Of a stretch of DNA of 64,000 bases, positions 8,598-32,294 are shown piece by piece. The notes below the pieces were generated by a model. That model was not told where the DNA came from. It did not search any database and was given only the letters and a program-made list of their open reading frames with translations. The DNA is taken from positions 32,001 to 96,000 of the forward strand of contig JANOEP010000016.1 in NCBI GenBank assembly GCA_031441465.1, given 5' to 3'. Origin of the DNA: a bacterium (GTDB taxonomy: Bacteria; Krumholzibacteriota; Krumholzibacteriia; LZORAL124-64-63). Positions within the stretch are counted from its first letter, which is position 1; the number at the start of each line of letters is the position of its first letter. The position numbers and the translations under genes are program-made.

Positions 8598-10088
8598 ATG
8601 ACGAGTCCGGCCGCGACCGACGACATGACGGCCCCTCGGGAGCCCCTCATCCTGCTGACCGGCGCCAGCGGCTATGTCGGCGGGCGGCTGTTGAAGCTGC
8701 TGGAGGACCAGGGGCGCCGCGTCCGCTGCCTGGCCAGGCGGCCGGAGATCCTCGCGCCGAAGGTCGGGCCCGGGACCGAAATCGTCGCCGGCGACGTCCT
8801 GGAACAGGCGAGTCTCGACGCGGCCATGCGCGGGGTCCGTGCGGCCTACTACCTGGTGCATTCGATGGGGTCGACGGGTTCGTTCGAGATCGAGGACCGC
8901 GCGGCGGCGCTGAATTTCGGGCAGGCGGCGCTGGCGGCTGGCGTGGAGCGCATCGTCTACCTGGGCGGGCTGGGCAGCGACGAGGAGGAACTCTCGCCGC
9001 ACCTGCGCAGCCGGCAGGAGGTCGGGCGGATCCTGCAGCAGTCGGGGGTGCCGGTGCTGGAGTTCCGCGCGTCGATCGTCATCGGCTCCGGCAGCCTCTC
9101 CTTCGAGATGATCCGCTCGCTGGTGGAGCGGTTGCCGGTCATGATCACGCCGAAGTGGGTCAAGGTGCCCGCGCAGCCCATCGCGATCGACGACCTGCTG
9201 GAGTATCTGGCGGCGGCGCTCGAGCTGCCCGTCTCCGCCTGCCGGGTGTACGAGATCGGCGGCGCCGACCGGGTGTCCTACGCGGACATCATGCGCGTCT
9301 ACGCCCGACAGCGGGGGCTGCGGCGGCCGATGATTCCGGTGCCGGTGCTGACCCCGTACCTGTCCAGCCTGTGGCTGGGGCTGATCACGCCGCTGTACGC
9401 GCGCATCGGCCGCAAACTCATCGAGAGCATCGTCCACCCCACGGTGGTGCGGGACGACGCCGCGCGCACCGTCTTCGCCGTGCGGCCGGTGGGCGTCGAG
9501 GAGGCCGTGCGCCGGGCTTTCGCCAGCGAGGAACGCCACTACGCGGCAACGCGCTGGTCCGACGCCCTGTCTTCGTCGGGGGCGCAGCCGACGTGGGGCG
9601 GCGTGCAGTTCGGCTCGCGGCTGGTCGATTCGCGGACCCTGAACGTGCCCGTCCCGTCCGCGGCCGCCTTCCGGCCCATCGAGAGGATCGGCGGCGTGAC
9701 GGGCTGGTACGCGTGGAACTGGCTGTGGCGGTGGCGTGGCTTCCTCGACCTGCTCGTCGGGGGCGTGGGACTGCGGCGGGGACGGCCGTCGCCGCCGACC
9801 CTGCGCGTGGGCGACACGGTCGACTGGTGGCGCGTCGAAGCGCTCGAACCGGGCCGCCGCCTGCGTCTCGCCGCCGAGATGAAACTGCCGGGACGGGCGT
9901 GGCTGGAGTTCGAGGTCACGCCCGACGGTCCGGGCGCGACGATCCGGCAGACCGCGATCTTTGATCCCGTGGGTTTGTTCGGCAGGGCCTACTGGTACGC
10001 GCTCTATCCCGTGCACCAGCTGGTGTTCGGGGGTATGCTCAGAGGGATCGCGCGGGCGGCCCTGCGTCACGAAACGAATGACGGATGA
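8598..10088 (+). CDS. SDR-like NAD(P)-binding oxidoreductase with DUF2867 (YbjT-like)
   Basis: TGASGYVG Rossmann motif, YYLVHSM, HLRSR, C-terminal AEMKLPGRAWLEF; alternative start 8583. Confidence 0.88.
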   Translation: MTSPAATDDMTAPREPLILLTGASGYVGGRLLKLLEDQGRRVRCLARRPEILAPKVGPGTEIVAGDVLEQASLDAAMRGVRAAYYLVHSMGSTGSFEIEDRAAALNFGQAALAAGVERIVYLGGLGSDEEELSPHLRSRQEVGRILQQSGVPVLEFRASIVIGSGSLSFEMIRSLVERLPVMITPKWVKVPAQPIAIDDLLEYLAAALELPVSACRVYEIGGADRVSYADIMRVYARQRGLRRPMIPVPVLTPYLSSLWLGLITPLYARIGRKLIESIVHPTVVRDDAARTVFAVRPVGVEEAVRRAFASEERHYAATRWSDALSSSGAQPTWGGVQFGSRLVDSRTLNVPVPSAAAFRPIERIGGVTGWYAWNWLWRWRGFLDLLVGGVGLRRGRPSPPTLRVGDTVDWWRVEALEPGRRLRLAAEMKLPGRAWLEFEVTPDGPGATIRQTAIFDPVGLFGRAYWYALYPVHQLVFGGMLRGIARAALRHETNDG

Positions 10089-21751: not shown

Positions 21752-22249
21752 ATGGGCAAGGTCGTACTGAAGCTCGGGAAGGACATCAGCACCGACGACA
21801 TCTACCCCGGACGGTTCATGGCCACGGTCCTCCCGACCGAAACGCCGCAGTTCTGTTTCCACGATCGCACGGAGTTCAACGCGCAGCTCAAGGCCAAGGC
21901 GATCCCGGCCGGCAGCGTCATCGTCGCCGACGAGAACTTTGGCTGCGGCTCGAGCCGCGAACAGGCGGTGAGCACGATCCGGGGCCACGAACTCGTCATC
22001 GTCGCGCGGAGCATCGCGCGCATCTTCCTGCAGAACGCCATCAACCTCGGCCTGAACCTGGTCATCTGCCCGACCATCGAGGCGCAGGAGGGGGACGAGC
22101 TCGAACTCGTTTCCGGCGGGGTGCTGAACAAGACCAGCGGCAAGGAATTCGCCACCGAGCCGCTGCCGCCTGCGCGCCAGGCGATCATCGACGCGGGAGG
22201 GCTGATCCCCTACACCCGCAAGAAACTGCTCGAACTGCCGGCTCGGTGA
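21752..22249 (+). CDS. Homoaconitase/3-isopropylmalate dehydratase-family small subunit
   Basis: ISTDDIYPG, NFGCGSSREQA, SIARIFLQNAINLG; GGAGG RBS. Confidence 0.92.
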   Translation: MGKVVLKLGKDISTDDIYPGRFMATVLPTETPQFCFHDRTEFNAQLKAKAIPAGSVIVADENFGCGSSREQAVSTIRGHELVIVARSIARIFLQNAINLGLNLVICPTIEAQEGDELELVSGGVLNKTSGKEFATEPLPPARQAIIDAGGLIPYTRKKLLELPAR

Positions 22250-22258
22250 TGTCAGTCG

Positions 22259-22459
22259 TCAGTCGCGGCGGCCTCGCCCGGAGGTCAGCAGCCACCCGAT
22301 CGCCGCGCCCCAGAGGACCGCGACGACCGGGTTGGCGCTGATCCGTCAGGTCGCGCCGCTGCAGTGCTGCCAGTAGTGCCAGAGATAGCCGAGCGCGCCG
22401 CCGAGGGCCGGGCCCCAGAGGCGGCGCGCCGCCGTGAGGAATTGCGGGCGCGTCGTCAC
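22259..22459 (-). CDS. DUF6132-like small membrane protein with in-frame TGA (22346-22348); candidate selenoprotein
   Basis: GTG start overlaps peptidase stop; MTTRPQFLTAARRLWGPALGGALGYLWHYWQHCSGAT[TGA]RISANPVVAVLWGAAIGWLLTSGRGRRD; both halves fit the recalled DUF6132 pattern GY.YY..GC.SG.C.I...P....YGA..G. Confidence 0.7.
22285..22341 (-). promoter_or_regulatory. Candidate bacterial SECIS hairpin 3' of the in-frame UGA
   Basis: UCAGC-GCCA-A-CCCGGUCGUCGCG-[GUCCUCUGGGG]-CGCGGCGAUCGGG-UGGC-U-GCUGA; 13-bp upper stem with two G-U pairs; loop starts with G at nt 28 after UGA. Confidence 0.5.
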
Positions 22460-23547
22460 GGCTGCACGTAGCCCGCGGCGTGGAGCTGCTCCACGTCGGC
22501 GAAGGTGCGCGGCGGCTGCAGGTGCTTTGCCAGGAAGCGGTAGACCCGCAGCCGGATCTCCTGGGCGCCCTTCGTGTCGAGACGGTCGAAGCTGTGGCCG
22601 CCGGGCGCAGCCTCGTAGATCTCGTATTCGAACTGCTTGTCTTCGGCCTTCAGCGCCTGGATCAGGTGCTCGACCTCCAGCACGTTCACGTCCTCGTCCG
22701 TGGTGTTGGACAGCACCAGCAGGGGAGTCTTCAACTTCTGGACGTTCCACACGGGCGAGCGGCGCTTGTACTCGGCGATGTTCTCGCCGACGGTCTGGCC
22801 GATGTGGTAGTCGGCCGAGAAGTCGTCCCGGTACTCCTGGTCCAGGTAGCCCAGGCGCGCGACGATATCGCTGACCGGCACGCCGGCGTAGGCGCAGGCG
22901 TAGTCGTCGGGATGCTCGAAGACGCTCATCAGGCTGATCAGGCCGCCGTGGCTCCAGCCGATCGAGCCCACGCGGCCCGGATCGACGAAGTCGTAGTTCT
23001 CCAGGACGTAGGCGCGGCAGGCGTGGGCGTCCTCGACCTCCAGGCCGCCGTAGTCGATGCTCTCGTACATGCCGCGGCCGTAACCCGTGCTGCCGCGGTA
23101 CTCCGGCGCCACCACCACGTAACCCTGGGCCACCAGCTCGCGCACGATGTGCGTGTGGTAGGTCGTGAAGTCGGCGTGGACGCCGCCGTGCGACAGCACC
23201 AGCAGCGGCGCCTTGCGGCCGGGATCGAGGTCGCGGGGGATGAAGACGTAGGCCCAGAACTTCAGCGGGTTGCCGGCGCCGATGCCCGTGGGGTTCGTCT
23301 CCTTCCACTTCGGCGGTCCGTACAGGCGCACCTTGTCGATGTGCGCGACGTCGCCCACGCGGTCGAACCAGAGGCCGTCGTCGACCTGCTTCTGCAGTTC
23401 GTCGAGGCGGTGCCCGAGATTCTCGATCGCACCGAGCACCTCGTCGAGCTTGGCGCCGACGTCGGCGACGGGGGAGGAGGTGTCCTGGGCGAAAGCGGTC
23501 AGCGGGACCGCGGCGGCGACGAAGCAGGCCAGCAGCAGGCGACGCAT
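22456..23547 (-). CDS. Secreted S9 prolyl oligopeptidase-family serine peptidase
   Basis: Signal peptide; HGG, YRGSTGYG, GWSHGG nucleophile, DEDV, GGHSF. Confidence 0.9.
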   Translation of the reverse strand: MRRLLLACFVAAAVPLTAFAQDTSSPVADVGAKLDEVLGAIENLGHRLDELQKQVDDGLWFDRVGDVAHIDKVRLYGPPKWKETNPTGIGAGNPLKFWAYVFIPRDLDPGRKAPLLVLSHGGVHADFTTYHTHIVRELVAQGYVVVAPEYRGSTGYGRGMYESIDYGGLEVEDAHACRAYVLENYDFVDPGRVGSIGWSHGGLISLMSVFEHPDDYACAYAGVPVSDIVARLGYLDQEYRDDFSADYHIGQTVGENIAEYKRRSPVWNVQKLKTPLLVLSNTTDEDVNVLEVEHLIQALKAEDKQFEYEIYEAAPGGHSFDRLDTKGAQEIRLRVYRFLAKHLQPPRTFADVEQLHAAGYVQP

Positions 23548-31295: not shown

Positions 31296-32294
31296 ATGCG
31301 CGACACCTTCAGAAAAGCGGACCTTCACGTCCATTCGTCCTTCTCGTTCGACGTGCCCGACCTCGGGGCGCTCCACCCGCGTGCGCTCTTCGAGGCGGCG
31401 CTGGGCCATCCCGATCCGGAGCGGCGGTTGGACTGGTTCACGCTGACCGACCACGACACGATGGCCGGCTGGGAAGCGCTGGTGCGCGAACTTCCCGAGG
31501 CCGACCGCGCCCTGGTGATCCCCGCCGTCGAGCACACGCTGCGCGACCCGACCCTCGGCTTCACGATCCACACCAACCTCTACGGTCTGGATCCCGACGC
31601 CTACGCGCGGTTGCGCGCCAAGGTGCGCACGCTGGATGAGCTGTGCGCGTACTGCGACGAGCGCGGCATCCACTACCAGTACAACCACCCGACTTGGTGG
31701 GAACGCGCCGAGCTGCGGCGCGGGCAGGTGGACTTCGCGCGCGTGCCGGAGATCGCCGCGCGCTTCCCGGTGCTCGAGCTGAACGCCGCGCGCACGCCGG
31801 CCCAGAACCTGATCACCGCCGGTCTGGCCGCCGAACACGGGCTGCCCCTGACCGCCTCGTCGGACACCCACACCGGCGCCGTCGGGCGCGGCTGGACCGC
31901 GGCCTCCGGGGGCACCGCGGCCGAGTTCCTCGGCGCGGTCTGGCGCGGCGAAGGGACGACGCACCTCGACCACCTGTCGCACGCGGCGCTGGTGGACGAG
32001 GCGCACGGGCTCATCGACGAGTTCATGGACCGCGGCCGCATCCACGGCCCGGCCGGGCGCGAGCCGTCCAGTCCGGCCCAGGCCTGGCTGGAGCACATGG
32101 CGCTGCTGCTGGTGCGCTCGCGCTGGGTGCAGCAGACCCCGGCGGCGCGCGAATCGCTGCGCACGCTGCTGAAACACGCGTCGGTCCCGATCCTCAAGTT
32201 GGTCATGGATCACGAGCACCGGCTGGATCGCCGGCTCGCCGATTCGGAACTGCGGACCTACCTGACGCAGGTGCAGATCGCCCACGCCGCCTAG
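31296..32294 (+). CDS. PHP domain metallophosphoesterase-like protein
   Basis: DLHVHS, TLTDHD, NHP, SSDTH metal-binding motifs. Confidence 0.85.
   Translation: MRDTFRKADLHVHSSFSFDVPDLGALHPRALFEAALGHPDPERRLDWFTLTDHDTMAGWEALVRELPEADRALVIPAVEHTLRDPTLGFTIHTNLYGLDPDAYARLRAKVRTLDELCAYCDERGIHYQYNHPTWWERAELRRGQVDFARVPEIAARFPVLELNAARTPAQNLITAGLAAEHGLPLTASSDTHTGAVGRGWTAASGGTAAEFLGAVWRGEGTTHLDHLSHAALVDEAHGLIDEFMDRGRIHGPAGREPSSPAQAWLEHMALLLVRSRWVQQTPAARESLRTLLKHASVPILKLVMDHEHRLDRRLADSELRTYLTQVQIAHAA

Follow-up and report, generated by a model that had tools for sequence, protein, structure and literature searches.

A candidate selenocysteine-containing branch of the small membrane protein family DUF6132 in the bacterial phylum Krumholzibacteriota

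The stretch of DNA considered here, referred to throughout as the window, comprises 64,000 nucleotides (nt; positions 32,001 to 96,000 of contig JANOEP010000016.1, assembly GCA_031441465.1) from a bacterium of the phylum Krumholzibacteriota, an organism known from assembled genomes alone. On its minus strand, between the gene of an S9-family peptidase (22456..23547) and a convergent aconitase small-subunit-like gene that ends at 22249, lies a short candidate coding sequence (22262..22459, minus strand) that contains an in-frame TGA. The peptidase open reading frame (ORF; Pfam Peptidase_S9, E 4e-33) has its likely start at an internal methionine codon at 23547, with a signal-peptide-like N-terminus, and its TGA stop (22456..22458) is overlapped by the GTG start codon of the small gene (22457..22459) as GTGA. 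The presence of ATG at the same codon in two genomes of the same genus supports this GTG as the start. Thirty-seven codons (GTG counted) lead to the in-frame TGA at 22346..22348, and 28 sense codons follow before the frame ends at a second TGA (22259..22261). When the internal TGA is translated as selenocysteine (Sec, U), the product has 66 residues, with the sequence C33-S-G-A-T-U38, a C-x4-U motif whose first position is encoded by TGC at 22361..22363, between two hydrophobic, glycine-rich stretches. The G+C content of the small gene is 75.8% and that of the window 69.5%. The overlapping GTG, the layout of 37 and 28 codons, the position of the TGA and the sequence of the product are all exactly as given in a preliminary description of the locus, which had proposed that the UGA is read as selenocysteine. 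The comparative evidence makes it probable (about 0.86) that the minus strand from 22459 to 22262 encodes a 66-residue, selenocysteine-containing membrane protein, a branch of DUF6132 whose UGA is decoded by SelB.

The distribution of the in-frame TGA among related genomes is central to this interpretation. When 61 related genomes were searched at the protein level in six frames, strong matches (E <= 3.4e-6) appeared at 26 places, distributed over 25 genomes and 19 genera, each with exactly one in-frame TGA; three further, weak rows (E 6e-4 to 8e-3) are fragments without stops. A profile built from 23 Sec-form sequences and run over 208 genomes, all of this phylum, found 59 places in 58 genomes and 20 genera, again with one TGA each. 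All of these places fall within a single family, in the window genome and 57 of the 90 others, and none occurs in the 117 genomes of the other eight families. Protein identity among the Sec-form places ranges from 35 to 90%, and in every place translated, including all 26 from the six-frame search, the TGA occupies the same column in a C-x4-U context. It is preceded by C-x-G-x-[TG] and followed by x-[ILV]-[TS]-x-x-P and then by the second hydrophobic helix, giving the Sec-form consensus CxGxTCxITxNP (with the second C written for U). The first column of the C-x4-U motif is Cys in 22 of the 23 aligned Sec forms and Ser in the remaining one. Of the 26 places, 25 have a start codon at a distance of 31-37 codons ahead of the TGA, the other being truncated at the edge of its contig; beyond the TGA the frame runs for 26-42 codons in 25 places, and for 94 in a frameshifted second copy. 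A TGA found in so many genomes is not a fault of assembly or a nonsense mutation of recent origin, and the concern that it might be unique to this one assembly is thus removed. Sequencing runs agree with this picture in that an independent DNA run and contigs from RNA libraries of relatives (approximately 92-94% identical) cover the TGA codon with no difference listed. Contigs from two RNA libraries of one study (1099 nt and 341 nt, approximately 92% identical) span the whole gene; these are not counted as evidence of transcription because DNA carry-over is possible and one of the contigs spans two convergent genes.

Some departures from the general pattern were observed. One congeneric genome (83% complete, 2% contamination) contains a second copy of the peptidase and small-gene pair (G001:C7, about 9001-9199), in which a frameshift follows residue 52 of the small gene and the tail matches in another frame; variation between strains or faulty assembly may account for this copy. 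In one genus (G015:C145:36984-37133) the first Cys is replaced by Ser and a Cys stands four residues after the Sec position (S-x4-U-x3-C), and the partner thiol may have moved. The public records of genomes from the genus of the window are labelled inconsistently as Gemmatimonas sp., Candidatus Latescibacterota, Fibrobacter sp. or simply 'bacterium', and the lineage is evidently mislabelled in places.

The reading frame is constrained on both sides of the TGA. Between codons -21 and +23, none of the 33 distinct sequences contains a further stop. The ratio of nonsynonymous to synonymous substitution rates (dN/dS, Nei-Gojobori) is 0.46 over the 23 codons after the TGA and 0.67 over the 21 codons before it, and downstream pairwise differences at the first, second and third codon positions are 0.363, 0.214 and 0.443, respectively, the second position varying least. 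Thus, constraint at the protein level after the TGA is at least equal to that before it.

Homologues that contain cysteine in place of the UGA are abundant. A profile search of 1.84 billion representative proteins returned 953 stop-free homologues at E <= 1e-3, with 22 at <= 1e-10. Among the best 39 of the 953, which were fetched, the column of the U is Cys in all 39, the spacing being C-x4-C in 38 and C-x5-C in one, and the motif reads G-C-x-[ST]-G-x-C-[PA]-I-T-S-N-P. In a joint alignment of 17 Sec and 34 Cys forms (51 sequences) the U/Cys column is invariant, and a comparison of 23 Sec with 34 Cys forms by hhalign gave a probability of 99.7% and an E value of 6.8e-26 over 64 columns. The homology continues past the TGA, as the preliminary description had held, with residue-for-residue alignment to the I-T-S-N-P segment and the second-helix part of the Cys forms. 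One cluster of Cys homologues carries the name 'DUF6132 family protein', and for another Cys form the nearest protein-atlas clusters have PF19628 in 74-97% of their members, with no function attached. The consensus of the 34 Cys homologues, GYLYYxFVGCxSGTCPITSNPxxSTLYGAxxG, agrees with the DUF6132 motif given in the preliminary description, where the TGA was likewise assigned to the second Cys position. As shown by these alignments, the window gene belongs to DUF6132 and represents a branch of it with putative Sec at the position of the second Cys in G-C-x2-G-x-C-x-I-T-x-N-P. It shares with DUF6132 (PF19628) a length of approximately 60-90 residues and two glycine-rich hydrophobic helices flanking G-C-x2-G-x-C-x-I-T-S-N-P; it differs in that every member found in this bacterial family has TGA in place of the second Cys codon.

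The machinery for selenocysteine insertion, whose presence the preliminary description had left to be checked, was found in the window genome (96.8% complete). This genome possesses selA (437 bits), selB (359 bits) and selD (343 bits) as well as a tRNA-Sec (67.8 bits) that ARAGORN reports as tRNA-SeC with anticodon tca, all above the curated cut-offs. The selD gene (G000:C25:35277-36200) has its own in-frame TGA and encodes a Sec-type SelD. Across the family, selA is present in 88 of 91 genomes, the three without it being 72-88% complete. No formate dehydrogenase alpha subunit reaching its family cut-off was found in the window genome.

Directly 3' of the UGA the transcript of the window gene is predicted to fold into a hairpin (22286..22340, minus strand) that lies within the coding sequence and resembles a selenocysteine insertion sequence (SECIS). 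Its core helix corresponds to RNA positions 9-63 (window 22340-22286), and with a longer flank the pairing starts directly after the UGA. The structure consists of a 13-base-pair (bp) upper stem, a weak 3-bp UCC/GGG cap and a lower stem; in the minimum-energy fold the apical loop is UCU (22312-22314), at a distance of 31 nt from the UGA. Folding of the 63-nt segment that starts at the UGA yields -43.2 kcal/mol (z -5.34 against dinucleotide shuffles; family mean energy -27.2), and the 91 nt at 22360-22270 reach -61.1 kcal/mol (z -4.72), a stability attained by none of 200 shuffles. The stem-loop reported in the preliminary description is therefore present; its 'G-initiated loop' holds in part, as the G-initiated 11-nt loop GUCCUCUGGGG forms only when the 3-bp mini-stem is open and the loop is otherwise UCU.

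Each of the 29 distinct Sec-form sequences has a hairpin after its UGA, irrespective of the neighbouring genes, which differ between genera, and the distance from the UGA to the start of the apical loop is 24-34 nt (32 nt in 15 sequences). Over the 63 nt from the UGA the mean z of the 29 sequences is -1.73, with 11 below -2, compared with a mean of -0.08 and one of 29 below -2 for the 63 nt before the UGA (Wilcoxon p 5e-7) and a mean of -0.45 and seven of 69 below -2 for the homologous segment in 69 Cys-form genes on metagenome contigs (Mann-Whitney p 3e-5); the sequences are kin, and these p-values are overstated. A common two-helix structure, derived from one subgroup of the same 29-sequence set on which it was tested, pairs 73.2% of the cells in the alignment, a proportion reached by none of 500 shuffles (67.6 +- 1.2%), while slid partners give 37-58%. 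Both sides change in nine of its 18 pairs, pairs of third codon positions among them. The 72 nt that begin with the TGA (window 22277-22348) are identical in all seven congeneric genomes with an intact copy, in which residues 2-10 of the protein vary, and this identity is an unusually strong constraint at the nucleotide level on the hairpin region.

The bacterial SECIS (bSECIS) model places the loop 16-37 nt after the UGA, with 3-9 nt and a G in its first two positions, on an upper stem of 4-16 bp with a minimum free energy (MFE) of -7.5 kcal/mol or lower, and a subset of bacterial selenoprotein genes is known to fail it (PMC13188914). The stem-loop of this family resembles the model of Zhang and Gladyshev in its position within the coding sequence directly 3' of the UGA and in distance, stem and energy: all 29 sequences have an upper stem of 4-16 bp, an MFE far below -7.5 kcal/mol and a loop distance within range. 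The element is thus SECIS-like by place, stability and conservation of fold, and atypical by the loop rule. No T-run occurs in the hairpin and no terminator-like site was found there on either strand. Because the hairpin follows the UGA regardless of neighbours and is without a T-run, it is not just the terminator of the convergent operon ending at 22249, a role that the preliminary description had named among the findings that would refute its proposal. The single terminator-like match in 22100-22600 is a minus-strand site (22134-22158) located within the aconitase small-subunit-like gene, approximately 100 nt past the stop of the small gene; it could be the end of a transcript that covers the peptidase and the small gene.

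A model of the protein was obtained with AlphaFold2 from the 51 aligned sequences. It contains a helix at residues 6-30, Cys33 in a loop, a short helix at 38-41 that starts at Sec38 and a helix at 44-60, with moderate confidence (mean predicted local distance difference test score, pLDDT, 70.5; predicted template modelling score, pTM, 0.41). The first transmembrane helix, of hydrophobic Gly/Ala/Leu/Trp composition, is predicted at approximately residues 14-30 (22370..22420, minus strand) and the second at approximately residues 44-60 (22280..22330, minus strand), where G51 and G55 are invariant among the aligned Sec forms. Two helices flanking the C-x4-U motif, as described from the sequence at the outset, are thus also what the model predicts. 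Both termini are basic (R4, R12 and R13; R62, R64 and R65), and under the positive-inside rule basic ends face the cytoplasm; both ends of the protein would accordingly be cytoplasmic, with the Cys/Sec loop at the outer face of the membrane.

The genes that surround the Cys forms offer a lead to function. In our own tally of 64 metagenome loci, which are not independent of one another, 149 same-strand ORFs lie within 500 nt of the Cys-form gene. An ArsR-type regulator is found at 24 of the 64 loci and a thioredoxin-domain protein at 19 (one fused to a DsbD membrane domain), followed by rhodanese at nine (two fused to a metallo-beta-lactamase fold), a heavy-metal-associated (HMA) domain at four and peroxiredoxin at three; DUF1858, YgaP-like, OsmC and glutaredoxin genes also occur nearby. 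Small clusters on one strand are a common arrangement, in which the Cys-form gene is accompanied by an ArsR-type regulator plus a thioredoxin-domain protein (150-210 residues) or by genes for rhodanese or HMA proteins. No description of such an operon pattern was found in the papers searched, where the sole mention of DUF6132 was unrelated. A tblastn search of a Cys homologue against 72,556 plasmids gave no match, and there is thus no plasmid or resistance-island context. Neighbours of the kinds found beside the Cys forms suggest a part in stress chemistry that involves thiols, sulfur or metal(loid)s.

The Sec forms are found in more varied surroundings. Three genera, that of the window included (the others at L030 and L041), have an S9 peptidase gene ahead of the small gene in the same orientation. 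In four genera, belonging to a subgroup with the motif C-x-[GS]-G-G-U, a multihaem cytochrome c (Cytochrome_C7 / MtrC-like) is encoded approximately 600 nt downstream on the same strand, and no ORF with a Pfam match occurs between it and the small gene. An aminotransferase gene is near the Sec form at three loci, two of which also have YchJ. No gene partner is conserved across the Sec forms, each neighbour being present in some genera only, and none of 48 small same-strand ORFs near them matches Pfam.

Several observations weigh against the interpretation of the window gene as a selenoprotein of the DUF6132 family. The gene is missing from 33 of the 90 other genomes of the family, although nearly all of them keep selA. 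Against Pfam DUF6132 (PF19628) the window protein reaches 16.8 bits (E 0.0052), short of the 23.2-bit gathering score, and it has no match among NCBIfam models; of 23 Sec forms, 20 hit the Pfam model with E <= 1, the lowest value being 6.1e-5. These weak scores, together with the strong profile-profile match, therefore indicate a divergent, putatively Sec-containing branch of DUF6132. The apical loop of the window hairpin, UCU, departs from the bSECIS model in having no G in its first two positions, and such a G is found in 19 of the 29 Sec forms, which is about the expectation from base composition. Under strict bSECIS criteria with an ungapped stem, eight of 29 Sec forms pass (that of the window is not among them), as do 255 of 1450 shuffles (17.6%) and one of 69 Cys forms; the criteria are therefore not enriched and do not argue for a canonical SECIS. 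In an ungapped alignment of 19 sequences RNAalifold detected no shared structure, because the pairing register differs between genera, and an Rfam scan of 22150-22500 returned only microRNA and small-RNA matches at chance level (E 0.46-9.8). The kinship of the sequences and the origin of the two-helix structure, given above with the hairpin statistics, count on the same side. In contrast to the Cys forms, the Sec-form loci (16 with larger neighbours scanned) have no thioredoxin, ArsR or rhodanese neighbours, and the transfer of the functional argument from one to the other is therefore weak. Finally, the support for selenium in the protein is comparative.

The last point, together with the unmet canonical bSECIS features of the window, leaves some room for a different kind of readthrough, in which a near-cognate or suppressor tRNA or a reassigned code would insert a standard amino acid (Trp, Cys or Gly) at the UGA. 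This is quite improbable. TGA ends both the small gene itself and the S9 peptidase gene, and the code is therefore not reassigned; the Sec machinery is complete in the window genome and selA is nearly universal in the family; the UGA replaces a Cys that is invariant in the homologues, which is the classical Sec/Cys signature; and the structured element found in every Sec form starts its loop within the SelB-type range of 16-37 nt after the UGA (PMC13188914). Still less credence is due to the view that the TGA is a true stop, that only a 37-residue peptide is made and that the downstream sequence is conserved for its hairpin, in RNA or in DNA, which might for instance terminate the convergent aconitase-like operon. 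The hairpin does lie 36 nt past the convergent stop at 22249 and is far more stable in this genus than the family mean, and the protein database holds only the 37-residue piece. However, the frame remains open over at least 23 codons in 33 sequences with a dN/dS of 0.46 and the least variation at second positions, the stretch after the TGA aligns with the I-T-S-N-P segment and second helix of the Cys forms, and the hairpin, which has neither T-run nor terminator-like site, is kept where the neighbouring genes differ.

Decay of a DUF6132 pseudogene through a nonsense mutation, or an assembly error that mimics one, might be suggested by the frameshifted second copy in one congeneric genome; its probability is negligible, as a single TGA at 59 places in 58 genomes and 20 genera, at 35-90% protein identity, refutes it, and neither the independent DNA run nor the RNA-library contigs differ at the codon. 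A further alternative concerns the hairpin more than the protein. In the genus of the window, the hairpin may have two roles, as the Sec insertion element of the minus strand and as a terminator without U-tract or stabiliser of the 3' end for the convergent operon on the plus strand. The stem is longer and stronger in this genus (z -5.34, compared with the mean of -1.73), adopts a different pairing register and stands 36 nt after the convergent stop, and its 72 nt are identical in seven genomes in which the N-terminal codons vary; against this, there is no T-run and no terminator-like match, and the contig data cannot show 3' ends. On balance such a double role is unlikely.

The reading of the UGA as selenocysteine is supported by the conserved TGA, the pairing with Cys, the Sec machinery and the hairpin, and a mechanism may be proposed on this comparative basis. 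The small gene would be transcribed with the S9 peptidase gene and translationally coupled to it, because its start overlaps the peptidase stop (GTGA). SelB carrying Sec-tRNA(Sec) would read the UGA at codon 38 as selenocysteine, a step argued from comparison, and would be recruited by the stem-loop that immediately follows the UGA and whose apical loop lies 31 nt beyond it. The product would be a helical hairpin of two short transmembrane helices with both basic ends in the cytoplasm, and a connecting loop of 12-14 residues would hold Cys33-x4-Sec38, with Sec at the start of the short helix. The exchange of Sec and Cys between the two forms would mark the C-x4-C pair as the reactive site of DUF6132. 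The Cys/Sec pair might form a reversible selenylsulfide, or might act at the membrane surface as a binding site for sulfane sulfur or for a soft metal(loid), because the Cys forms adjoin ArsR-type regulators, thioredoxins, rhodaneses and heavy-metal-associated proteins. A reversible selenylsulfide or a soft-ligand site at the membrane surface is the most likely chemistry, at roughly even odds, and the 'redox-active' character given to the product in the preliminary description would follow from chemistry of this kind.

A broader scheme can be put forward tentatively, as a possibility that falls short of being probable. DUF6132 may be a minimal membrane-embedded dithiol relay (here a selenol/thiol relay) that works with partners of thioredoxin or rhodanese type under ArsR-type control and passes on reducing equivalents, sulfane sulfur or soft metal(loid)s at the surface of the membrane. 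In the uncultivated lineage studied here the site would have become Cys/Sec and the gene would have been freed from the operon, and the protein would be among the few selenoproteins that keep the whole Sec machinery in genomes that yielded no selenocysteine formate dehydrogenase. In the genus of the window the hairpin may double as a terminator of the convergent operon.

Comparison with known selenoproteins shows both familiar and distinctive features. Some known membrane selenoproteins have Sec in place of a Cys of a metal- or sulfur-handling motif and were likewise found through Sec/Cys pairing and a hairpin after the UGA; they differ in having no Pfam or NCBIfam relation to the window protein, which is much smaller (66 residues, two helices). 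Among eukaryotes, SELENOK and SELENOS are very small membrane-anchored proteins with one Sec each; they have a single helix and a disordered tail in the cytosol, within which the Sec is placed close to the C-terminus, and their SECIS lies in the 3' untranslated region. They are like the window protein in size, in membrane anchoring and in the single Sec, and unrelated to it in sequence, so that the resemblance is one of analogy only. The window gene would represent a new selenoprotein family of the usual Sec/Cys-pair type, distinguished by its size and membrane location.

Such a gene is easily overlooked. A search of 5.8 billion protein clusters, limited to a range of lengths, recovered a single relative, an N-terminal stump of 37 residues, which bears out the suggestion that ORF callers miss the gene. 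Deng et al. reportedly described, in 2026, unvalidated selenoprotein candidates from groundwater genomes. The parts covered of the Haft & Gwadz preprint, of deep-Sep and of BSepDB contain no description of a DUF6132 selenoprotein, and nothing relevant was found in the literature on selenoproteins in Gemmatimonad lineages. Table 1 of a review of May 2026 catalogues 119 prokaryotic selenoprotein families and gives their Sec motifs and domain identifiers, the latter in many cases from NCBIfam (PMC13188914). That table includes no DUF6132, no PF19628 and no C-x4-U motif (PMC13188914), although other recent candidate lists could contain the family. The window gene very probably encodes a real, unlisted selenoprotein.

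If this is true, it adds a selenoprotein family that is invisible to standard gene calling, and its members would be among the smallest bacterial selenoproteins and among the very few that are located in the membrane. The family would also supply atypical examples of the bacterial SECIS, many of them without the loop G (that of the window included), which bear on why predictors based on the SECIS miss genes. The pairing of Sec with Cys, together with the neighbours of the Cys forms, would provide the first testable functional hypothesis for the uncharacterised DUF6132.

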